DNA of 10,864 nt, taken from UHGV virus genome UHGV-1747598; one strand, given 5' to 3'. Position 1 is the first letter of the stretch, and each line of letters begins with the position of its first letter. This DNA is from a virus. The translations under genes and the position numbers were made by a program. Shown here one piece after another: positions 1,281 through 10,864 of this stretch. The notes under the pieces were generated by a model. The model saw nothing but the letters and a program-made list of their open reading frames with translations, searched no databases and was not told where the DNA came from.

Positions 1281-1775
1281 ATGGCCATGATGATGATCTA
1301 CGGCATGTTTGTTTTTGAGCTGCGTACGTTGCCGCATCAGCAGTTACAGCAAAACAAAAGCTGGCGGCATGTGAAAAATGAACGCGTTAACCGTTCAGCA
1401 AGCTGGCAGTATATCGGGGCAGGCGATGATCGCATCGTTCTTTCTGGTGTGCTTTATCCTGAAATTACAGGTGGCGAAGTGTCGCTTTCGTTGCTGACCA
1501 CGCAGGCATATACAGGACGCCCCTGGCCTCTGATTGATGGTGTCGGGCAGATTTACGGCATGTATGTCCTGACCGGAACGAATACGACCCGCTCCGAGTT
1601 TGATCGCTACGGTAAGGCGAAAAAGATAGAATTTTCACTGACTCTTGAACGCTGTGATGAGGATTTGCGGGAGCGCCTGCAATCCTCATCGTTCAGTGAT
1701 ATGCTGTCCGGCTTCAAAGATAAGGTCACATCATCCCTTAACAGCGCGGCCAGCTCCGTTAAAGGGCTGTTTTGA
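1281..1775 (+). CDS. Phage tail protein U-like (P2 gpU family)
   Basis: 164-aa ORF with ATG at 1281 preceded by GAGGAG. The N-terminal GMFVFE..TLPHQ motif and the GVLYPE.TGG motif match my recollection of the P2 gpU family. Size and position after the tape measure fit. Confidence 0.7.
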   Translation: MAMMMIYGMFVFELRTLPHQQLQQNKSWRHVKNERVNRSASWQYIGAGDDRIVLSGVLYPEITGGEVSLSLLTTQAYTGRPWPLIDGVGQIYGMYVLTGTNTTRSEFDRYGKAKKIEFSLTLERCDEDLRERLQSSSFSDMLSGFKDKVTSSLNSAASSVKGLF

Positions 1776-1782
1776 TTAACGC

Positions 1783-1812
1783 AAAACCGCTAATGGTCAG
1801 ATTAGCGGTTTT
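1783..1812. terminator. Bidirectional intrinsic terminator hairpin between convergent gpU and invertase genes
   Basis: Perfect inverted repeat AAAACCGCTAAT (1783-1794), loop GGTCAG, ATTAGCGGTTTT (1801-1812), followed by a T-rich tract on + and with the A-run giving a U-run on the - transcript. It lies 8 nt after the gpU stop and overlaps the invertase stop codon (1802-1804). Confidence 0.55.
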
Positions 1813-2401
1813 CATTTTCCTGAGTCTGCCTGGTTGTTTCTTCAGCCTGTATATCGCCTACAGGGTGATAACGATAAATCGTCGATATGCCGATGTCGTA
1901 AATGATCGCCAGTTGTTTCCTGTCATGACCGTTTTTAATCAGCCTCGCTATTTGCTCGTGTTGTTCTTTTGTCAACTTCGGGCGACGTCCGCCAATGCGT
2001 CCTTGTGCGCGTGCTGCTGCCAGCCCGGCCAGTGTACGCTCTACAATTAATTCACGTTCCATTTCGGCTAAAGCCCCCATGACGTGAAAAAAGAAACGCC
2101 CCATGGGTGTTGATGTGTCAATGCTGTCCGTCAGACTACGGAAATTAACACCTTTTTCCCGCAATTCCTCAATAAGCGTGATCAGGTGTTTCATACTTCT
2201 GCCCAGTCTGTCCAGCTTCCAGACAACCAGCGTATCTCCTTCTGATAGCGTTCTGAGCAGTTTTTTCAATCCCGGTCTGGCTGATTTCGTTCCGCTGATT
2301 TTATCTTCAAAAATCAGTTCACATCCTGCGCAGTTCAGTGCATTGCGTTGTAAATCCGTGTTCTGGTCATTTGTTGACACACGAATATAGCCAATTTGCA
2401 T
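1802..2401 (-). CDS. Serine DNA invertase, Hin/Gin/Pin/Cin (Din) family
   Basis: The 199-aa product begins MQIGYIRVSTNDQNTDLQRNAL and contains VVWKLDRLGRS, SLTDSIDTS, GRFFFHVMGALAEMERELIVERT and a C-terminal HTH (GISTIYRY), all hallmark motifs I recall from Hin/Gin. The true start is the ATG at 2401-2399, preceded by AGAGGA; the 264-aa ORF in the track is read-through into the upstream crossover-site region. Confidence 0.9.
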   Translation of the reverse strand: MQIGYIRVSTNDQNTDLQRNALNCAGCELIFEDKISGTKSARPGLKKLLRTLSEGDTLVVWKLDRLGRSMKHLITLIEELREKGVNFRSLTDSIDTSTPMGRFFFHVMGALAEMERELIVERTLAGLAAARAQGRIGGRRPKLTKEQHEQIARLIKNGHDRKQLAIIYDIGISTIYRYHPVGDIQAEETTRQTQENENR

Positions 2402-2455
2402 AAAAAACATCCTCTTTGTTTCGTGAAAAATACATAGTTGGTATAGGTAGGGATA

Positions 2456-2481
2456 AAGACGAAAACGTTGGTTTGGGGGAA
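2456..2481 (+). other. Invertase crossover site 1 (hix/gix-like, 12-2-12)
   Basis: AAGACGAAAACG-TT-GGTTTGGGGGAA. It resembles the gix/hix architecture (..AAACC-NN-GGTTT..) as I recall it. It lies about 55 bp upstream of the invertase start, at the 5' boundary of cassette A. Confidence 0.6.
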
Positions 2482-2901
2482 GGCTCTGCGCTGCCCGTTG
2501 GTGTGCCCGTTCCATGGCCCTCAGCCACGCTGCCAACGGGGTGGCTGAAATGTAACGGCGCAGCATTTTCTTCTGAAATGTACCCCAATCTGGCAAAGGC
2601 CTACCCCGCCAATAAATTACCGGATTTACGGGGCGAATTTATTCGTGGCTGGGATGATGGACGTGGTGTGGACAATGGGAGAGCATTATTAAGCAGCCAA
2701 GAGGCTACAAATTTTTCTCAGCGTGCCGGAAATATAGGCGATGGTGCGGGCCACGCAATTAATTTTCATGATGGCATAGTCGGAAATCAGCCAGGATTTT
2801 CACGATTTAATTTCACCAGTAACTCTGTAGGCGATGGTATAAATTATGTTGCTGTCAGGCCGCGAAATATCGCATTTAATTACATCGTAAGGGCAGCATG
2901 A
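2470..2901 (+). CDS. Silent alternative tail-fiber C-terminal cassette A (no start codon of its own)
   Basis: The translation GSALPVGVPVPWPSATLPTGWLKCNGAAFSSEMYPNLAKAYPANKLPDLRGEFIRGWDDGRGVD...RPRNIAFNYIVRAA is near-identical at both ends to the C-terminus of the H tail fiber, with a different central block. It begins at crossover site 1 and ends with TGA at 2899-2901. Confidence 0.7.
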   Translation, partial: GLGEGSALPVGVPVPWPSATLPTGWLKCNGAAFSSEMYPNLAKAYPANKLPDLRGEFIRGWDDGRGVDNGRALLSSQEATNFSQRAGNIGDGAGHAINFHDGIVGNQPGFSRFNFTSNSVGDGINYVAVRPRNIAFNYIVRAA

Positions 2902-2920
2902 AAACGTTGGTTTGGGGAAA
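2895..2920 (+). other. Invertase crossover site 2 (hix/gix-like)
   Basis: AGCATGAAAACG-TT-GGTTTGGGGAAA. The stop codon of cassette A (TGA) is embedded in its left half-site. Same orientation as site 1. Confidence 0.6.
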
Positions 2921-3388
2921 GGCTCGGCGCTGCCCGTTGGTGTACCTGTTCCGTGGCCCTCAGCTACTCCACCAACGGGCTGGCTGAAATGCAACGGCGC
3001 AGCATTTTCTTCTGAAAAGTATCCCAAACTGGCACAGGCTTACCCCGCGAACAAATTACCGGATTTACGCGGTGAATTTATCCGTGGCTGGGATGATGGG
3101 CGAGGAATTGATGCAGCACGCGCTTTATTGAGCATTCAAACCGGGATGTTGGAAAAACACCGCCATATTGTTGTAGCTAACGATAGATATGACACAAAGG
3201 ATGAATGGGAGTTGGCCACGATTTTCAAAAAAACATATACACAAGGCAGGGGGCTTGATGCCACAAATACAGGAGGGAGTTTGATTCCATCACCAACGCT
3301 TCATTCACGAGGAAGTATTGGTAACACAGGTGGTAGTGAAACCCGCCCCCGCAATATTGCATTTAACTATATCGTGAGGGCGTCTTAG
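2909..3388 (+). CDS. Silent alternative tail-fiber C-terminal cassette B
   Basis: It has the same conserved 5' block (GSALPVGVPVPWPSATPPTGWLKCNGAAFSSEKYPKLAQAYPANKLPDLRGEFIRGWDDGRGID) and the same 3' motif (RPRNIAFNYIVRAS), with a distinct central region. Stop TAG at 3386-3388. Confidence 0.7.
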   Translation, partial: GLGKGSALPVGVPVPWPSATPPTGWLKCNGAAFSSEKYPKLAQAYPANKLPDLRGEFIRGWDDGRGIDAARALLSIQTGMLEKHRHIVVANDRYDTKDEWELATIFKKTYTQGRGLDATNTGGSLIPSPTLHSRGSIGNTGGSETRPRNIAFNYIVRAS

Positions 3389-3394
3389 TTATAT

Positions 3395-4006
3395 TCAACT
3401 GGCTGCTGCCAGTGGTATTTCCGGCCAGTTGATATCTGGTGCCATGTTTATATCCATTGCGTTCAGTGCGTCTATATAATCCAGCACGGCGTTAAGCCGG
3501 GTGGTTTCTGCCTGCGTCAACTTCCGCCCGGCCTGCAACTTCAACTGAATCAGACTTACGGAAGCCATTGCCGCATCAGCCAGTGACTGGCGCTTGGTTT
3601 CTGCCGCTTCTACTGCGGCACCATGTTGTGCCTCAGTATCTGTCACCCATTTTTCACCATCCCATTTATCGTATGGTGTTAACGGGGCGATAGTGGTTGT
3701 ATTTTTCGGGTAGTCACCCAGCGTCGTGATTTCTTCGGTGTTTCCCGTGTCAGTGTTATAGACGGTTTCACCACGATGGTCTGGCGCATACTCCCATGAA
3801 CTTAAATTCTCCGAACGGCGGATAGCATAGCCCGCTTTATGTGCGCCCGGGGCATCTAAACAGGAATTTGCCGGAATACCGACACCCACAGCAAGATATT
3901 CAGTTGATTCGGAAATATATTCCCGTGTTTCACCATCATAGTTATAAACGACGATGTTTCCTGCCTGTACGGCAATAAGGTCATCATTTAATATCGCGTT
4001 ATTCAT
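3395..4006 (-). CDS. Tail fiber assembly protein (Tfa chaperone)
   Basis: The 203-aa product (MNNAILNDDL...VYNYDGETREYIS...YAPDHRGETVYNTDTG...PYDKWDGEKWVTDTEAQH...) looks like the Tfa proteins encoded next to tail fiber genes in lambdoid, Mu and P2-like phages. Its ATG overlaps the stop of cassette C as TAATG. Confidence 0.8.
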   Translation of the reverse strand: MNNAILNDDLIAVQAGNIVVYNYDGETREYISESTEYLAVGVGIPANSCLDAPGAHKAGYAIRRSENLSSWEYAPDHRGETVYNTDTGNTEEITTLGDYPKNTTTIAPLTPYDKWDGEKWVTDTEAQHGAAVEAAETKRQSLADAAMASVSLIQLKLQAGRKLTQAETTRLNAVLDYIDALNAMDINMAPDINWPEIPLAAAS

Positions 4007-4467
4007 TATGCGGTTCTCACAATATAATTGAAGGCAATATTGCGTGGGCGGCTTTCATTCCCATCTGAGGATTCCGTTCTGTATTGACTGGTAAATCTAC
4101 CGTTAATTGCACCTTGCCAGACGGCGTTATCTGTCGACAACAGACTATCCCCTCCTTTGTCATTTGGCACCAGTACCGTGTTATCCCACGCGTCCCATGA
4201 CCGAATATTATGATAATGACTTCCTGTTAACCACCCCTGCATGCTTAAGATGCCCCTTCTGGCATCCACCCCGCGCCCATCATCCCAGCCACGGATAAAT
4301 TCACCGCGTAAATCCGGTAATTTATTGGTGGGGTAGGCTTTTGCCAGTTTGGGGTACATTTCAGAAGAAAATGCTGCACCGTTACATTTCAGCCAGCCCG
4401 TTGGTGGTGTTGCTGAGGGCCACGGAACGGGCACACCAACGGGCAGTGCAGAACCTTCTCCTAAACC
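4006..4467 (-). CDS. Silent alternative tail-fiber C-terminal cassette C, translationally coupled to tfa
   Basis: Translation NVGLGEGSALPVGVPVPWPSATPPTGWLKCNGAAFSSEMYPKLAKAYPTNKLPDLRGEFIRGWDDGRGVD...RPRNIAFNYIVRTA. It follows the stop of the active cassette and crossover site 3, and has no independent start. Confidence 0.7.
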   Translation of the reverse strand, partial: GLGEGSALPVGVPVPWPSATPPTGWLKCNGAAFSSEMYPKLAKAYPTNKLPDLRGEFIRGWDDGRGVDARRGILSMQGWLTGSHYHNIRSWDAWDNTVLVPNDKGGDSLLSTDNAVWQGAINGRFTSQYRTESSDGNESRPRNIAFNYIVRTA

Positions 4468-4481
4468 AACGTTTTCATGCT
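4456..4481 (-). other. Invertase crossover site 3 (hix/gix-like)
   Basis: On the - strand this reads AGCATGAAAACG-TT-GGTTTAGGAGAA. The stop codon of the active H gene (TGA, 4477-4475) is embedded in its left half. It is inverted relative to sites 1 and 2. Confidence 0.6.
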
Positions 4482-6115
4482 GCCCTTACGATGTAATTAA
4501 ATGCAACGTTGCGAGGGCGAGTTTCTGTACCTACATTTCCACTAATTTTACCAAACCGTTTTACATTACGAGAGCTAATGGCTCGTAGTGAGGAAGGCAC
4601 CTTTAAACCGGGTTCGTCTGTTTTAACTATTCCCCCGTCCCCGTATGTAGCCAGTATTCCAGGGTTTACTCCTTCCCGTGTACTTCCCGCGGCAAGTCCA
4701 TCCCCGGTCCATAATTCCATATAGTGTGCATGATCCAAAATTGTGTGTGGCTGCCAATTAAGCAAAGCGCGGCCAGCATCCACCCCGCGCCCATCATCCC
4801 AGCCGCGAATAAATTCTCCCCGTAAATCCGGTAATTTATTGGCGGGGTAGGCCTTTGCCAGATTGGGGTACATTTCAGAAGAAAATGCTGCTCCGTTACA
4901 TTTCAGCCAGCCCGTTGGTGGTGTGGCTGAGGGCCATGGAACAGGCACACCAACGGGCAGTGCAGAGCCTCCCCCCAAACCAAGGTAATCAAGAACTCCC
5001 TGAGTGCTGGTTTTACCAAGAATGGCACGTCCAACACTTGTCAACGCGGTTAACGCGGCACGATCTGCCCCTGTAAAATATGGGAGTTTATCTGCTGATG
5101 TAGCAAGCTCCGCCAGCGCCGTCAGGGTGGCATCCTTCGGTTGCTTACCCGCAAGCGCGTTAGTCATGGTGGTCGCAAAATTCGGGTCATTGCCCAGCGC
5201 CGCAGCCAGTTCGTTCAGCGTGTTCAGTGCATCAGGTGACGAATCTACAAGTGCGGCAATCGCGGCCATAACGAAAGCCGTGCTTGCGATCTGGGTACTA
5301 TTAGCCCCCTGTGGCGCTGTTGGTGTTGTTGGCGTTCCGGTCAGTGCCGGGCTGTTTAATGGTGCTTTCTTGTTCGTTTCATCCATTACCGCCTTAACAG
5401 CTTTTGGTGTCGCTGCCAGCGTTTCAGACGTGCTGTTCGTGGCGCTACTGAGCTGAACAATCCCTTTTTGTGTAGTGGTGGCGTTCCGGGCGGTATATTT
5501 CCCGTTAGCCAGGTCATATGCAGCCTTAACCGCTTTCGGTGTTGCGGCCAGTGTTTCTGATTCACTGTTAATTGCACTGCTTAACTGAGTAAAACCTTTT
5601 ACGGTCAGCGAGGCGTCCGGGTGACGTCGTGATTGTTCGTGCTCTGATATTTTATCATCCACATATTTGCGGGTTGCCAGAACCACAGACGGGTCGATTT
5701 TCAGCGTGATGGCTTCGGTGTTCGTGACAACCAGAATCATGCGGATAGTCTGGGTGCGTCCACTGCCTTCCTGCAACTGCGGTTTGTACGTTTCCGGGCA
5801 GTTTGCCACCGCAATGAGTACACCTTCATCATCATAAAGACCAATCTCACGGATCCAGAATCCTCCCTCGTTTTCAGGGATGATTTGCTCCGCAATAATC
5901 TGGCTCTGATTGTTAGGGTCAACACTCAGAAGATTCAGCGGTGCAATGCGTTTCTGGTTAATCAGTTTTGTTTGTGCAGGGTCTGGTGTTGGTAACACAC
6001 CATTTGCATCACCAACGGCCATTTGCGTCAGATTCAGCTTACTGCCGAGCATCGTCGCGTTAGCCAGTCGTGCCGCGCCCTGATTAGTCAGAATGGCGTA
6101 GTATTTCACTGTCAT
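4475..6115 (-). CDS. Tail fiber protein H (P2 gpH-like constant N-terminal region fused to the currently active C-terminal cassette D, about 4475-4982)
   Basis: The 546-aa product starts MTVKYYAILTNQGAARLANA...MAVGDANG and contains EHEQSRRHPDASLTVKGFTQLSSA and the twice-repeated SETLAATPKAVKA motif, which match my memory of P2 gpH. The C-terminal 166 aa carry the shared cassette blocks. Its ATG overlaps the gpI stop as ATGA. Confidence 0.85.
   Translation of the reverse strand: MTVKYYAILTNQGAARLANATMLGSKLNLTQMAVGDANGVLPTPDPAQTKLINQKRIAPLNLLSVDPNNQSQIIAEQIIPENEGGFWIREIGLYDDEGVLIAVANCPETYKPQLQEGSGRTQTIRMILVVTNTEAITLKIDPSVVLATRKYVDDKISEHEQSRRHPDASLTVKGFTQLSSAINSESETLAATPKAVKAAYDLANGKYTARNATTTQKGIVQLSSATNSTSETLAATPKAVKAVMDETNKKAPLNSPALTGTPTTPTAPQGANSTQIASTAFVMAAIAALVDSSPDALNTLNELAAALGNDPNFATTMTNALAGKQPKDATLTALAELATSADKLPYFTGADRAALTALTSVGRAILGKTSTQGVLDYLGLGGGSALPVGVPVPWPSATPPTGWLKCNGAAFSSEMYPNLAKAYPANKLPDLRGEFIRGWDDGRGVDAGRALLNWQPHTILDHAHYMELWTGDGLAAGSTREGVNPGILATYGDGGIVKTDEPGLKVPSSLRAISSRNVKRFGKISGNVGTETRPRNVAFNYIVRAA
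4970..4995 (-). other. Invertase crossover site 4 (hix/gix-like), inside the tail fiber gene at the constant/variable junction
   Basis: On the - strand this reads TTCTTGATTACC-TT-GGTTTGGGGGGA, encoding ...LDYLGLGG.... The central TT occupies the same codon positions as in cassette sites 1-3. Confidence 0.6.
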
Positions 6116-6720
6116 GCGTTTACTCTCAGATTATCAATTAAATGAATGGCCGGGGCAGGGAAATAATCCCCTTCGACAATAATGGACTCCGGGGTGTAGG
6201 GATAAACCGTCAGGGCATCGCCGTGATAGCATCCCGTACCAACGAAAATCTTTCCGTTCACACTCAGGCTGATCGCCAGCCCCGTCAGATGGCGACTTAC
6301 TGGTTTTGCATCCGCAATAAGGCGCTCAAGTTCCTGATACATTTCATCGGTGATGCCCTGATCAAGTACTCCGACAACAATGCGAAATGTTCCTGGCTCC
6401 TCGTTGAGTTGCCACCACTCCTTTACTTCAATCAGGTAGCCGAGAGGCTCCACGGCTCTTCGCAGTGCGCTGATGGTCCCTTTGTGTCGGTGTATCAGCC
6501 ATGCATCACGAATCACCTGTCGCTTTGTCTCTTCCGGCCAGTTGCGATCCCAGCGGTCAACGGAAAACGCCCAGGCGAGATAAGGCAGCAGATGCGCCGG
6601 GCATGTGTCCGGCGACCACAGCGTGTTGAGGTCTACCGGAATGTCTGTAATGCGTGTTCCGACGGCTTCGGCGCAACGCATGAAATTGCTGGCTGATGGT
6701 GGTAACAACGAATTACTCAT
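6112..6720 (-). CDS. Baseplate/tail protein I (P2 gpI-like)
   Basis: Product contains WSPDTCPAHLLPYLAWAFSVDRWD, HKGTISALRRAVEPLGY and ADAKPVSRHL, as I recall for gpI. The likely start is the ATG at 6720, which overlaps the gpJ stop (ATGAGTAA), rather than the longer ORF listed from 6753. Confidence 0.8.
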   Translation of the reverse strand: MSNSLLPPSASNFMRCAEAVGTRITDIPVDLNTLWSPDTCPAHLLPYLAWAFSVDRWDRNWPEETKRQVIRDAWLIHRHKGTISALRRAVEPLGYLIEVKEWWQLNEEPGTFRIVVGVLDQGITDEMYQELERLIADAKPVSRHLTGLAISLSVNGKIFVGTGCYHGDALTVYPYTPESIIVEGDYFPAPAIHLIDNLRVNA

Positions 6721-7609
6721 TGCGCCCACCTTCGCTGATGGTGAATGACTCACAGCACGCCGCCTGTATGTCGCTGATGGCCATATTCTGTGTGGGTTCG
6801 ATTATCTCCACGCGTTGCACACCGTGCACATGCAGTGCGGCAGCAATGGCGGACAACGCCACGTCCTGACCGATAAGCCCCTGTTCAGCCAGCCACTTCC
6901 TGAACGACGATTCAGCCGCGGCCAGAATAGGTTCGGATTCCGGGCCGGGGTAAAAGTACAGTTTTGCATTCAGCCGCCATGTCACGATTCTGGCGCTCTG
7001 TACGGTCAGGCGGTCGGCCACCGGGCGGGTATCCTCTGCATTCAGAACGGCGCGAACGGTATTAAGCAACGCCTCCGTTGCTGTGCCGTCGCCTTCAGTG
7101 GACAGAATGGAAACCGTCACACAGGCCGGAGACGGGCTGATGGCCCGCGCATCACGCACCAGACCGCTGGCGCTGCGTGCAAAATACTCGTATGCGCCTG
7201 ACGGGCCAGCAACACTCAGGCCGTCGTACGCCCGCTGCGCCCGCAATCTCAGCGAGGTGTCGCTCTCCATCACCGCGTCGGTGGTATCCGTTGCCGGAGT
7301 GATAACCAGGCGCTTTGTGTTCATATTGCCCGCGAGGTTGTCCAGGTTTGTCCCTGAACCGTGGCTTAACATGCAGGCGCGTGCGCCCTCGTTAACCCGC
7401 TGGCGTAACAGCATTTCACGAAAAGACATGGTTTGAGCGATAACGTTCAGGGGTTCCGATTCCAGCTCCAGCGCGGCGGAGACGGCTTCACGCTGTTCGG
7501 CAGGATAGGACGCAATCATCATGGCCTTTGTGTCAGCCAGAATTGCTTCAAAATCAGGCTCCGCGATGATGGCGGGTTCCGGTAACTGGGAAAGGTCAAC
7601 GGCAGGCAT
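6713..7609 (-). CDS. Baseplate assembly protein J (P2 gpJ-like)
   Basis: 298 aa, the size of gpJ, with its position between the W and I homologs conserved. Confidence 0.8.
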   Translation of the reverse strand: MPAVDLSQLPEPAIIAEPDFEAILADTKAMMIASYPAEQREAVSAALELESEPLNVIAQTMSFREMLLRQRVNEGARACMLSHGSGTNLDNLAGNMNTKRLVITPATDTTDAVMESDTSLRLRAQRAYDGLSVAGPSGAYEYFARSASGLVRDARAISPSPACVTVSILSTEGDGTATEALLNTVRAVLNAEDTRPVADRLTVQSARIVTWRLNAKLYFYPGPESEPILAAAESSFRKWLAEQGLIGQDVALSAIAAALHVHGVQRVEIIEPTQNMAISDIQAACCESFTISEGGRNE

Positions 7610-7612
7610 GAT

Positions 7613-7963
7613 TTACTCCCTCAGCGTGATGGTTAATTCAACATTCTGCATGGTCTGCATGACAGTGCCCGACAGAGTCACCCCGGCGCGGCCTCCTGCC
7701 TTCCAGACAACGTCGATGGCGTCCAGGGCAATGCGGGGTTCCCATCGTGTCAGCGCAATCACGGCAGCACTCATGCATTGCAGACGAGTTGTGTTATTCA
7801 TGGGTTCGTCAATCAAATCAGGCACAAGGCTGCCATATTCCCGTCGCATAACCCGGCTTGCCAGCGGGGTGATCAGGATGTCCCTGACTGACTGTTTCAG
7901 GTGCTCCATATCGTTCAGGTTTCCCGTCCCGTCCGGATTCATTCCTGTGTAGCGGGTTGTCAC
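7613..7963 (-). CDS. Baseplate wedge protein W (GPW/gp25 family)
   Basis: 116 aa with the conserved order V-W-J. Its start overlaps the gpV stop by 4 nt. Confidence 0.8.
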   Translation of the reverse strand: MTTRYTGMNPDGTGNLNDMEHLKQSVRDILITPLASRVMRREYGSLVPDLIDEPMNNTTRLQCMSAAVIALTRWEPRIALDAIDVVWKAGGRAGVTLSGTVMQTMQNVELTITLRE

Positions 7964-8541
7964 TGCGGGCCTCCTGTCGAATCGCTGCCGCCTTTCACGC
8001 CACCGTGTTTATGCGTATGCACTGTGATGCCGTTTGAGGTGAAGTTGCCGCCGCTGTGCGTGATATTGCCGCTCATCTTTCCTCCTTTTGTGACGTCAAG
8101 CGTCGCCGTTCTCAGAAGGTTTGTGCATTCCACGACGGGCGTGTCCAGTTTCACGCTGACGGATGCCTGTAAAGTGGCCGTTTTCATGCCGCTGGCGCTC
8201 AGTGCGCCAGCGTCTGCGTCGTAGCGGAACACCGCGCCGTCCGGCGCGCTGATCACGATTTCTTTCAGGCTTTTGCCGGGGGCCGGACTGGCATCACTCC
8301 ACAGGCTGCCAATTATCATGGCGGTTTCCGGGTTGCCGCCAATGCAGGCAATTACCACCTGTTCGCCTGGTGATGGCGGCAGCCACACATTGAAGGCTCC
8401 CGCGCGCGTGGTGTTCCAGCGCAGCCAGCCTGTTTCCAGTTCGCCGCTGCGAACGCGCACGCGCCAGGACTTCTCATCAACTTCAGAGATGATCCCGGTG
8501 CGGATGATATTGCTCAGCAGTCGCATGAGTTCTGCGCTCAC
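7960..8541 (-). CDS. Baseplate spike/assembly protein V (P2 gpV-like)
   Basis: 193-aa product with an N-terminal OB-fold-like region and a Gly-rich C-terminus (GGKMSGNITHSGGNFTSNGITVHTHKHGG), typical of gpV spikes. Its start overlaps the upstream gene stop by 4 nt. Confidence 0.8.
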   Translation of the reverse strand: MSAELMRLLSNIIRTGIISEVDEKSWRVRVRSGELETGWLRWNTTRAGAFNVWLPPSPGEQVVIACIGGNPETAMIIGSLWSDASPAPGKSLKEIVISAPDGAVFRYDADAGALSASGMKTATLQASVSVKLDTPVVECTNLLRTATLDVTKGGKMSGNITHSGGNFTSNGITVHTHKHGGVKGGSDSTGGPQ

Positions 8542-9173
8542 CGTACAGCCTCCGCAATCCGGCCCAGCACCGTGTTATAAATCAGGCGCTCATCTGCCTG
8601 GCTGATACCCAGCAGCTCACGTACCGGGTAATCGGTGAAAATGCCCGGCGCAACCTGATCGCGCTCACCGAACTGATGAACGCGGGCAATACGTGCGGCC
8701 ACGCCGCTGTAACCCACCGTCACACCGGAAGCATCTGCACGGGCTTTCAGGTAGCGGGCGGTGCGCAGTTTTACAAACATGGGGACGCGCTTTGTGCTGT
8801 CCTGGTTGATGCGCCGGGTGCGTATTTCCAGAAAACGGTCGATGTCATCCCGGTAAAACGTGCGGATATTGTTTTTATCCTCATCCCACCCGGTAATGGT
8901 TCGCCCGTATTTCCCCGTGTCGTGATGCCAGTTTTTCAGCGTGCGTGCTTCGTTATTCCAGATAAAGCGAATGCGCTCCTGTATCCGGGTTACGCGGCGT
9001 CTGCGTGGTGTCCATTCGGTCCCGTCCGGCGCTTTTTGTGATCGGATACGTGCCTGCTGGGCGCGACGTAAATCCTGTGCCAGCTTTCTGGCGATGTTAT
9101 TGATGGCCTGCTGATTCAGGCTGTCGCGGATAGCCTCAAAGGTTTCATCCACGCTGGTGAATGCCTTATCCAT
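8538..9173 (-). CDS. Phage virion morphogenesis / tail completion protein (gpS-like)
   Basis: It occupies the gpS position between the R and V homologs. The likely start is the ATG at 9173, which overlaps the gpR stop (ATGGATAA). The basic, Arg-rich product fits my impression of the virion-morphogenesis family. Confidence 0.55.
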   Translation of the reverse strand: MDKAFTSVDETFEAIRDSLNQQAINNIARKLAQDLRRAQQARIRSQKAPDGTEWTPRRRRVTRIQERIRFIWNNEARTLKNWHHDTGKYGRTITGWDEDKNNIRTFYRDDIDRFLEIRTRRINQDSTKRVPMFVKLRTARYLKARADASGVTVGYSGVAARIARVHQFGERDQVAPGIFTDYPVRELLGISQADERLIYNTVLGRIAEAVR

Positions 9174-9633
9174 CGCTTTCACCCCACGTCACATCCTGGA
9201 ATACATGCGACCAGTCGCCTTCGGAAGAGGGCAGACGGGGTTTTGGCTCCGGCAGGTGTTCTGCCTGCGGTGTGCCCTGACTGTTGCGCGTGATGCGAAC
9301 GCGTTCCCGCAGGGGGAGCGTAAACAGGAGATCGGCGCTGTCATCGTCATTGATAACGGCAGAAAATTTGATGTCCTGATTACGCTCCGGATTGAGCAAC
9401 AACTGTGGCTGATTTTCGGATAACCACGCCAGCAGCGGCAGCGTGAGGTCGTCCAGCTCTCCGGCGTAATCCATGACAAACATCACCATCTGATAGCGGT
9501 AAACAAACGAGGGCGCTTCTCCGGTCGTTTCAATGTTGCCGCTCTCCACGAAAATGGTGAATTTCTCGGGATTAGCCTGGCACCACCGACACCCATGAAG
9601 CATGGACTCTCGCAGACTGTTTGTCTTAAGCAT
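9166..9633 (-). CDS. Tail completion protein R (P2 gpR-like)
   Basis: 155 aa, the size of P2 gpR. N-terminal MLK..SLR and the central LPLLAWL.ENQP motif match my recollection of gpR. GGAGAG RBS upstream. Confidence 0.65.
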   Translation of the reverse strand: MLKTNSLRESMLHGCRWCQANPEKFTIFVESGNIETTGEAPSFVYRYQMVMFVMDYAGELDDLTLPLLAWLSENQPQLLLNPERNQDIKFSAVINDDDSADLLFTLPLRERVRITRNSQGTPQAEHLPEPKPRLPSSEGDWSHVFQDVTWGESDG

Positions 9634-9656: not shown

Positions 9657-10864
9657 TTATGCTGCGGGATTATTGATTTCCAGCACCAGGCTGCCGATAT
9701 CGACGCCGTACGCGGCATTTTTAGTGATATCAGTTAACGTCAGCGCATTCAGCCCCAGTGTCAGACTGTCTTTTATGACCTGGAATGCCGGGCCAGCCAC
9801 TCCATTCAGTTTCGGAGTAACCGTGGCACTGCCGGCGGTGAACACCAGCTCCAGCGTCTGCCAGTCGTTACTGTAATTCCCGAACTCGCCCAACTTTGTG
9901 TTTCCTGCTTTCTTGTGATGCATCAGATTCAGTTTGCCGTCTGTGGTCTGGGTGAAGAACGACATCAGGAACGGGTTACCAGTCCCGGTCATCGCCACGA
10001 CGTCAGGTAACGCTACATCGGTATACAGATAAATTCCCAGACCGAACTGATTGTTGGTCAGTGCGCCTGACAGTCGAAACTTACAGCTCAGTCTGCCACC
10101 CCGTGTCAGCAGGGAGACTGCGTCATCCACCGGATGCATCAGGGACCAGGTTTTATTGCTCTGCTTGGTAACCTTAAACACACCATCTTCCAGCGCAACA
10201 CTGCCGCCGGTGATGGTCCAGCCCTGCGCAGCAGCCTCTCCGGCTGTCGGCAGCAGGGAGACTGTACGAACGGATGTGTCACCATCAGACGGCCCCGATG
10301 GCGTGTCGCCGCCGGGCGAGGGTTTAATCTCCGGTGCGGTACCGCTGATGAAGGCGCTGGTTCGACCAACTGCGTTCAGAATAGCGGTTGCCAGGCGATC
10401 CGAAATAATGCCCCTGCGCGCCCATGAACTGAAATGTGTCGGACGATTTGACGATACCCAATTACCATTACTACGGGATTGCGCGCCGTAATAACCTGCA
10501 TCAGCAATATCCGGGTCTTCTGCCGGTAAGTTGGTGGGCGTGTTGTTGCCGTTACCGTCGGTCATGAACGGCACAAAGAAAACGTTGTCGCTCTCCCTGT
10601 TTTTGTACGCGCCGTAGACGGAGTCATACTGTGTGCCGTATGTGTTTTTCCAGTAATACGTCGTGTCGCCACAAATCCACGGTACAACTGCAGCACTGCC
10701 GCCATGGCACTGCGCGTTAAATCCGGAAAGGTCAGTACGGAACTGCTTCAGCATGGCCGTGAACAGGTCCGGTTGCTGTGCGTAGGTGGCAGCGCTCATG
10801 TCAAATTCGCCCTGCATCCAGCACACCGCCAGCAACACATTTTTCGGGTTCTTCTGTAATGCAG
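9657..10864 (-). CDS. Partial CDS (N-terminus outside window): C-terminal part of a NanS-like sialate O-acetylesterase domain fused to a beta-rich, lectin-like C-terminal domain
   Basis: The frame is open to the window edge. Motifs CWMQGEFD, PWICGDTTYYWK, PAEDPD and HFSSWARRGIISDR resemble what I recall of E. coli NanS and prophage NanS-p esterases. The C-terminal ~200 aa are Gly/Thr-rich. It ends 23 bp upstream of gpR in the same orientation. Confidence 0.4.
   Translation of the reverse strand, partial: ALQKNPKNVLLAVCWMQGEFDMSAATYAQQPDLFTAMLKQFRTDLSGFNAQCHGGSAAVVPWICGDTTYYWKNTYGTQYDSVYGAYKNRESDNVFFVPFMTDGNGNNTPTNLPAEDPDIADAGYYGAQSRSNGNWVSSNRPTHFSSWARRGIISDRLATAILNAVGRTSAFISGTAPEIKPSPGGDTPSGPSDGDTSVRTVSLLPTAGEAAAQGWTITGGSVALEDGVFKVTKQSNKTWSLMHPVDDAVSLLTRGGRLSCKFRLSGALTNNQFGLGIYLYTDVALPDVVAMTGTGNPFLMSFFTQTTDGKLNLMHHKKAGNTKLGEFGNYSNDWQTLELVFTAGSATVTPKLNGVAGPAFQVIKDSLTLGLNALTLTDITKNAAYGVDIGSLVLEINNPAA

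Follow-up and report, generated by a model that had tools for sequence, protein, structure and literature searches.

A probable four-site multiple-inversion switch of the Din type in the tail-fibre operon of a P2-like Escherichia coli prophage

Organisation of the fibre locus

We analysed a stretch of viral DNA of 10,864 nucleotides (UHGV virus genome UHGV-1747598, hereafter the window), which a Pfam profile search of its open reading frames (ORFs) identified as part of a P2-like E. coli prophage. Between two converging operons, where the baseplate and tail-fibre operon ends, the window carries a fibre gene, three further, silent 3' ends of such a gene, four short crossover sites and the gene of a DNA invertase (Table 1). 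Together these very probably form a multiple-inversion switch of the Din (Gin/Cin/Pin/Hin/Min) type.

The constant 5' part of the fibre gene (Hc) is 88% identical to P2 H at the nucleotide (nt) level, and the only place in the window where it is joined to a cassette is Hc-D, a single ORF of 546 amino acids (aa) on the minus strand (6115-4475). Cassettes A, B and C are without a constant part, and each of them fuses in frame to Hc when the two are joined at the central TT of the crossover sites, giving ORFs that stay open to the stop codon over 521 aa (Hc-A), 537 aa (Hc-B) and 531 aa (Hc-C). As in Min-type systems, one constant 5' part can therefore be completed in frame by any of several promoterless 3' cassettes.

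After each site comes a repeat of 216-279 nt with 84-92% identity between copies, which encodes GSALPVGVPVPWPSAT...GRGVD. At the protein level the N-terminal 77 aa, the collar part, are 88-94% identical between cassettes, the variable cores of 53-78 aa share 17-27% identity and are essentially unrelated, and the C-terminal 13 aa, RPRN(I/V)AFNYIVR.., which hold the shared motif RPRNIAFNYIVR, are alike at 11-12 of 13 positions. Cassette D matches the short tail fiber structure 9cuy (1.5e-15) and the T4 gp37 tip 2xgf (1.7e-14) in the PDB, and these matches take in both the His-x-His motif and the C-terminal NIAFNYIVR. The fibre tip is an intertwined trimer. In T4, the gp37 chain runs out of the collar into the needle and head at the distal side and then comes back to finish in the collar, a path that fits a conserved N-terminal part and C-terminal tail framing a variable distal receptor-binding core. 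Judged by its sequence, each cassette is a T4-gp37-like collar (the N-terminal ~77 aa plus the C-terminal RPRNIAFNYIVR) built around an unrelated distal core, and this core is presumably the receptor-binding tip.

A degenerate 26-nt pattern has exactly four matches in the window, against 0.00 expected from 200 shuffles, and all four carry an identical central TT. Read in the sense of the cassettes, the sites share the form of 12 nt followed by TT-GGTTT(G/A)GG..., and their right halves, GGTTT(G/A)GG(G/A)(G/A)(A/G)A, are comparable with those of gix (GGTTTACAGGAA) and cix (GGTTTAAGAGAA). They are homologous to Mu gix, TTATCCAAAACC-TC-GGTTTACAGGAA, and to P1 cixL, ...CCTAAACC-TT-GGTTTAAGAGAA, and have the build of Din-family sites, with two imperfect inverted half-sites of 12 bp around a shared 2-bp core. 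They also match the published sites of the E. coli EC958 prophage Phi2 and the consensus table given with them (PMC4134206).

The invertase has a Resolvase domain (Pfam, 1.5e-51) and an HTH_7 domain (1.4e-12), and matches the Gin structures 4m6f and 3uj3 in the PDB (E 3e-91), with its Ser9 aligned to the S9A position of 3uj3. The protein has 73% of its residues in common with Mu Gin and 74% with P1 Cin over the full length, and its gene is 100% identical in nucleotides to that of the module in strain E2348/69. A resolvase-type catalytic domain with its serine, a C-terminal helix-turn-helix and closeness to Gin, Cin and Hin place it in the Din family. A longer call for the same gene, a 264-aa ORF, begins at an upstream TTG that the annotation of relatives does not use.

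Within the invertase gene we infer a Fis-dependent recombinational enhancer. In the P1 sequence, nt 19-90 of cin are annotated as the enhancer of Cin, and the corresponding stretch of the window's gene is 79% identical to P1 cin, compared with 64% over the remaining gene. Two 11-nt blocks in it, TCAACAAATGA and GCAGGATGTGA, are invariant among the window, P1 and Mu, and their centres are 48 bp apart (2367-2377 and 2319-2329), a distance that also separates the pair of Fis sites in enhancers of the Din family.

The original prediction, made from the letters of the window, had described four hix/gix-like sites of 26 bp, two on each strand, each followed by about 190 bp of near-identical sequence, then four different variable cores with a common C-terminal motif, of which only D would be fused to the P2-H-like constant region and A, B and C would be silent, together with a serine invertase whose catalytic Ser lies in RVSTNDQ. 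The parts were found as it had described them, with the sites at the positions that it gave, the quoted translation of the repeat being present and the catalytic serine being the one aligned with that of the Gin structures.

A promoter scan of 1700-5100 gave only two weak sites, fewer than expected from shuffles, and detected no rightward promoter beside site 1 (2402-2455). A TTG at 2416 extends the frame of cassette A by 18 codons across site 1 (2416-2901, plus strand), and an equivalent ORF is annotated by the Prokaryotic Genome Annotation Pipeline (PGAP) in strain PC6. A second expression site starting from this TTG was considered and rejected, there being no Shine-Dalgarno sequence before it.

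Table 1. Features of the fibre locus, with positions in the window
Feature	Position	Strand	Remarks
Hairpin, 12-bp stem	1783-1812		between the converging gpU and invertase genes
Din-family serine DNA invertase, 199 aa	1802-2401	-	begins MQIGYIRVSTNDQ; catalytic Ser9 in RVSTNDQ
Putative Fis-dependent recombinational enhancer	2312-2383	-	nt 19-90 of the invertase gene; homology to the P1 cin enhancer
Site 1	2456-2481	+	central TT 2468-2469; cassette sense AAGACGAAAACG-TT-GGTTTGGGGGAA
Cassette A, silent, 143 aa	2470-2901	+	Pfam Collar 2.5e-13; includes right half of site 1 and stop codon
Site 2	2895-2920	+	central TT 2907-2908; AGCATGAAAACG-TT-GGTTTGGGGAAA; overlaps stop codon of A
Cassette B, silent, 159 aa	2909-3388	+	Pfam Collar 1.7e-14
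Tfa (P2 gpG-like), the only tail-fibre assembly gene	3395-4006	-	Caudo_TAP 2.8e-32; PHROG 105 tail fiber assembly 8.5e-92
Cassette C, silent, 153 aa	4006-4467	-	Pfam Collar 9.3e-15
Site 3	4456-4481	-	central dinucleotide 4468-4469; AGCATGAAAACG-TT-GGTTTAGGAGAA; overlaps stop codon of D
Cassette D, expressed, 168 aa	4475-4981	-	part of the 546-aa ORF; His-x-His motif HAHYMELW like T4 gp37 tip
Site 4	4970-4995	-	central dinucleotide 4982-4983; TTCTTGATTACC-TT-GGTTTGGGGGGA; constant/variable boundary of the fibre gene
Constant 5' part Hc, P2 gpH-like	4984-6115	-	Pfam Phage_tail_fib 1.8e-62; Phage_fiber_2 repeats 5.7e-42

Isomers of the locus and the cause of inversion

The window has more than two crossover sites, in both orientations, and overlapping invertible segments, again as in Min-type systems. 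When we enumerated inversions over the oppositely oriented site pairs, of which there are 4, they alone reached 12 gene orders, in which the cassette expressed is D in 4, A in 4, B in 2 and C in 2. From the present order A and B are one inversion away and C is two, and the enumeration confirms the products that the original prediction had expected, namely Hc-A from exchange between sites 4 and 1, Hc-B from sites 4 and 2, and Hc-C after two inversions.

In the mechanism that we propose, the invertase would bind the four sites, probably assisted by host Fis on the enhancer inside the invertase gene, and strand exchange would occur at the common central TT and only between opposed sites (4x1, 4x2, 3x1 and 3x2). 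The cassette landing next to site 4 would then be translated as the fibre tip, and the virions released from a population of lysogens would differ in adsorption, with up to four specificities. The window copy is probably active and may depend on Fis, and cassettes A to D may recognise distinct receptors and confer four host ranges.

The predicted isomers occur in close relatives. When synthetic Hc-A, Hc-B and Hc-C junctions were compared with other complete E. coli genomes, each had full-length, single-piece matches at 96-99%. Hc-A is uninterrupted in three of them (98.9-99.4%), Hc-B in at least five, and Hc-C, followed by the tail-fibre assembly gene tfa, in KOr024, D72, AR_0013, E2348/69 (CP059840.2) and others; in KOr024, C is expressed and D lies silent beside the invertase. 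The complete 546-aa Hc-D protein had no exact counterpart in the assembly index. Strain NCTC9022 has four sites and the window's four cassettes, at 98-100% identity, arranged as Hc-D-A-B / tfa'-C' / inv, the one-step product predicted for exchange between sites 3 and 1. Aligned with the window, it has collinear flanks and an inverted block of 2,015 bp (window 4475..2461), both ends of which lie inside sites, one of them site 3.

A sister module in strain E2348/69 gives the exchange point more closely. Two assemblies of this strain, NC_011601 and CP059840.2, differ there only by an inversion of 2,005 bp (99.95% identity), and the exchange, bounded within 37 bp, starts at the central TT, directly where the left half-site ends. 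For the P2-like prophage locus of E2348/69, three inverted repeats and two overlapping inversions of ~2.2 and ~1.8 kb have been described (Goldberg et al. 2014, PMC4272514), and four variants were shown by sequencing, and verified by polymerase chain reaction (PCR), to coexist in the clonal strain (PMC4272514). The published segment sizes fit the locus, in which the site centres are 2,001 and 1,562 bp apart, with the repeats added. Taken together, the NCTC9022 order, the natural Hc-A, Hc-B and Hc-C fusions and the E2348/69 pair bear out the original prediction of a multiple-inversion module driven by a serine invertase in a P2-type tail.

Several observations weigh against this reading. The right half-site variants GGTTTGGGGGAA, GGTTTAGGAGAA, GGTTTGGGGAAA and GGTTTGGGGGGA are found on different cassettes in different strains (the window, L001-L011 and L091-L094). 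Being uncoupled from the cassettes, they suggest that homologous exchange or gene conversion also acts inside the ~200-bp repeats and homogenises them, in addition to site-specific exchange; according to the reference list of PMC4134206, local conversion has been described for Cin. Taken further, RecA-dependent homologous recombination between the repeats of ~200-280 bp could itself drive the rearrangement, with the 26-bp motifs being the 5' ends of these repeats, as the presence of long imperfect repeats (84-92% identical) and the reshuffling of half-site polymorphisms among cassettes would lead one to predict. Yet the left half-sites, which are not part of the repeats and have no homologous flanks in common, keep the dyad-symmetric GAAAAC/GATTAC arm of gix and cix. 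That of site 4, TTCTTGATTACC, ends Hc unchanged in each of the twelve chromosomal relatives from E. coli that we examined (L001-L005, L010, L011, L091-L094), and that of site 1, AAGACGAAAACG, remains beside the invertase gene and is fixed there in L002, L010, L011, L091 and L094. Moreover, the E2348/69 exchange fell in the first 37 bp of a repeat of ~215 bp, from the central TT, and an intact Gin homologue always adjoins the module in the relatives read. Switching frequencies of ~10-50% in clonal cultures fit an invertase (PMC4272514, PMC4134206), and deletion of gin locks the related module of the Enterobacter prophage FRphi (PMC13418256). On these grounds homologous recombination was rejected as the main driver, and we regard it as extremely improbable in that role.

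The second point concerns the window copy itself, for which switching is a prediction. In the putative enhancer stretch, synonymous conservation is in weak and not significant excess (Fisher test, p = 0.07 in the comparison with cin and 0.17 in that with gin). The copy in the window could be a frozen relic, which inherited the architecture and no longer switches, D being the only tip made, whether the prophage is defective, the invertase unexpressed or the enhancer non-functional. Many such prophages are defective, and signs of decay are seen in relatives, with an insertion sequence in tfa (L093) and frameshifted or partial cassettes (L010, L094). Against this, the invertase ORF is intact and does not differ by a single nucleotide from that of E2348/69, whose module switches; the four cassettes are open and in frame, the four sites keep their central TT, and the neighbouring tail genes are intact. 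We therefore hold a frozen relic to be very unlikely, and keep to a multiple-inversion switch as the explanation of the locus.

The third point concerns tfa, a gene that the original prediction did not mention. The ATG of tfa and the stop codon of C share bases (TAATG), and at its other end tfa is convergent with B, 6 nt away. Unlike in P2, it thus lies on the invertible C/B segment and flips with it, and of the 12 isomers enumerated, 6 have it antisense to the late operon, including both of those that express B; the scan of 1700-5100 placed no promoter-like site near it. With one tfa, antisense in half of the isomers, and no promoter found, some isomers may not yield working fibres. Mu and P1 provide a separate Tfa for each variable part. 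Tfa proteins bind the distal part of the fibre through a variable N-domain (PMC9608196). Either tips A, B and D would fold without a co-expressed cognate Tfa, or inversion would also toggle the competence for fibre assembly, a pair of possibilities that we consider doubtful. The former, if true, would be unusual for this class of fibres, and cassettes in other Enterobacterales nearly all have their own tfa; under the latter, part of the population would make fibre-defective or Tfa-less virions with altered adsorption.

Prophage context

On the plus strand, the tape-measure gene ends within the window and gpU lies at 1281-1775; the minus strand carries gpR, gpS, gpV, gpW, gpJ and gpI, followed by the gpH-like fibre gene. 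The Phage_tail_fib, Phage_fiber_2, Tail_P2_I and Caudo_TAP domains (Pfam), with gpR, S, V, W and J upstream, mark the fibre locus as one of P2 type. Unlike in P2, the tail operons converge (1-1812 against 1802-9633), with tape measure and gpU on the plus strand and gpR to gpH plus the invertase on the minus strand; within the window no gpD follows gpU. The hairpin between the converging genes is likely a bidirectional terminator ending the late operon. Upstream of gpR lies an ORF of 393 aa (9657-10838, minus strand) with a DUF6645 domain (Pfam 1.2e-19), which also matches PHROG 143, of unknown function, over profile positions 234-631 of 634 only. Homology with the NCTC9022 prophage ends at window position 9591, which makes this ORF a cargo (moron) gene or a truncated gene.

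Distribution and comparison with known systems

Of 5,426 complete E. coli genomes, 3,290 contain parts of the module. In the loci that we read from this species, the number of cassettes is two in SCU-101, three in KOr024 and E2348/69, four in C325, PC6 and NCTC9022, five in ECA64 and CB9615, and six in EC43 and 23CRST001. These loci draw on a common pool of cassettes, and next to Hc and next to the invertase they keep the same left half-sites. Some loci have peculiarities of their own: CB9615 carries cassette A in two copies, 23CRST001 has an IS4-like element that splits tfa, and one of the six cassettes of EC43 is frameshifted. In SCU-101 (locus L003, 4914-6902) a fibre ORF of 662 aa contains a B-type core and, after it, one of C type, without an intervening crossover site, and looks like a hybrid or tandem tip from aberrant recombination.

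The module is also found outside P2-like prophages. The P1-like phage vB_EcoM-673R5 (L095, 6001-9600) has a five-site version (invertase 92%, A 96%, B 86% and C 90%), and about 255 plasmids, mostly non-mobilizable E. coli replicons of ~90-100 kb, carry the module at 88-92%. In the phage-plasmids, where invertase, sites and cassettes show 88-96% nucleotide identity, it lies behind a constant part of the P1 S type. These similarities indicate that P2-like prophages and P1/p15B-like elements have probably exchanged the whole switch horizontally. Other Enterobacterales were surveyed at 79 loci, with a filter of 45 aa and 1e-6 that may have missed diverged cassettes; there the cassette is mostly single, with its own tfa, and a few classical Mu-like pairs occur; tandem arrays in Photorhabdus had no invertase in the stretch fetched. 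Within this sample of 79 loci, the multi-cassette form with a single tfa looks specific to the Escherichia lineage.

If the locus works as proposed, a P2-like prophage can draw four alternative tips from ~2.5 kb of DNA, from cassette sets that are modular and whose pool is common to P2-like prophages and P1-like phage-plasmids. Automated annotation turns each silent cassette into a 'phage tail protein' of its own or a pseudogene, and any one assembly shows just one of the 12 isomers, with consequences for host-range prediction, phage engineering and pangenome counts.

The closest system is the E2348/69 module, which shares with the window the backbone (flanks 96-99% identical), the invertase gene, the site sequences, the B and C cassettes and the single tfa. 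It differs in having three sites and cassettes and 4 isomers, where the window has four of each and 12 isomers; it is without D, and its first cassette has no match of at least 60% to the core of A. The Min system of plasmid p15B is reportedly a multiple-inversion system too, its description being ascribed to Iida 1990 and to Sandmeier, Iida & Arber 1990-92. Like the window, it has a Din-family invertase and more than two sites in both orientations, and it shuffles the 3' ends of a fibre gene. Min has six sites and belongs to a P1-type fibre operon with an S-like constant part, whereas the constant part in the window is P2 gpH-like; here p15B is set beside the window by its description. P1-like phage-plasmids, in which we find the module, are the kind of element in which Min was described, and the invertases of such phage-plasmids have been reported to be 98.5% identical to Min.

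The classical Gin/G segment of Mu and Cin/C segment of P1 resemble the window in their homologous 26-bp sites, in the fusion of constant and variable part at the site and in the conservation, near the start of the invertase gene, of the stretch that in the window is the putative enhancer. They have two sites and two alternatives, each with a tfa (U, U'), in contrast to the four cassettes, one tfa and gp37-collar-type tip of the window. True shufflons (R64/IncI) use the tyrosine recombinase Rci, 19-bp sfx repeats and the 3' ends of pilV. The recombinase of the window is a serine resolvase/invertase and its target a phage fibre gene, so that of the label 'Min/shufflon-like' in the original prediction the Min-type multiple inversion stands and the shufflon is an analogy only.

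Prophage Phi2 of EC958 (Forde et al. 2014, PMC4134206) shares the type of site, with TCCTCAATTACC-TT-GGTTTAGGAGAA and GAGAGATAAACG-TT-GGTTTGGGGGAA and repeats of ~197 bp, and, as in the window, its constant part has Phage_fibre_2 repeats and its invertible part a Tail Collar domain. Its segment of 2,067 bp was seen in both orientations in PacBio reads (PMC4134206); with two sites and one segment it has two variants only, where the window has four. In the Enterobacter prophage FRphi, three C-terminal fibre cassettes are shuffled by a downstream gin, and related loci hold up to six paralogues (Nat Microbiol 2026, PMC13418256). Deletion of gin locks the state, and only one isoform (C2) infects the test host, via FhuA (PMC13418256). 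Host and phage are different from those of the window.

The novelty that the original prediction implied is thus overstated: Min of p15B has long been known, versions with two, three and up to six cassettes have been published, and the four-cassette set of the window is itself already in RefSeq (NCTC9022), among relatives that hold 2-6 cassettes. Conceptually the window adds little, the mechanism and the sister element having already been demonstrated experimentally. Rather than a new architecture, it is a four-site member of a known, experimentally characterised family.

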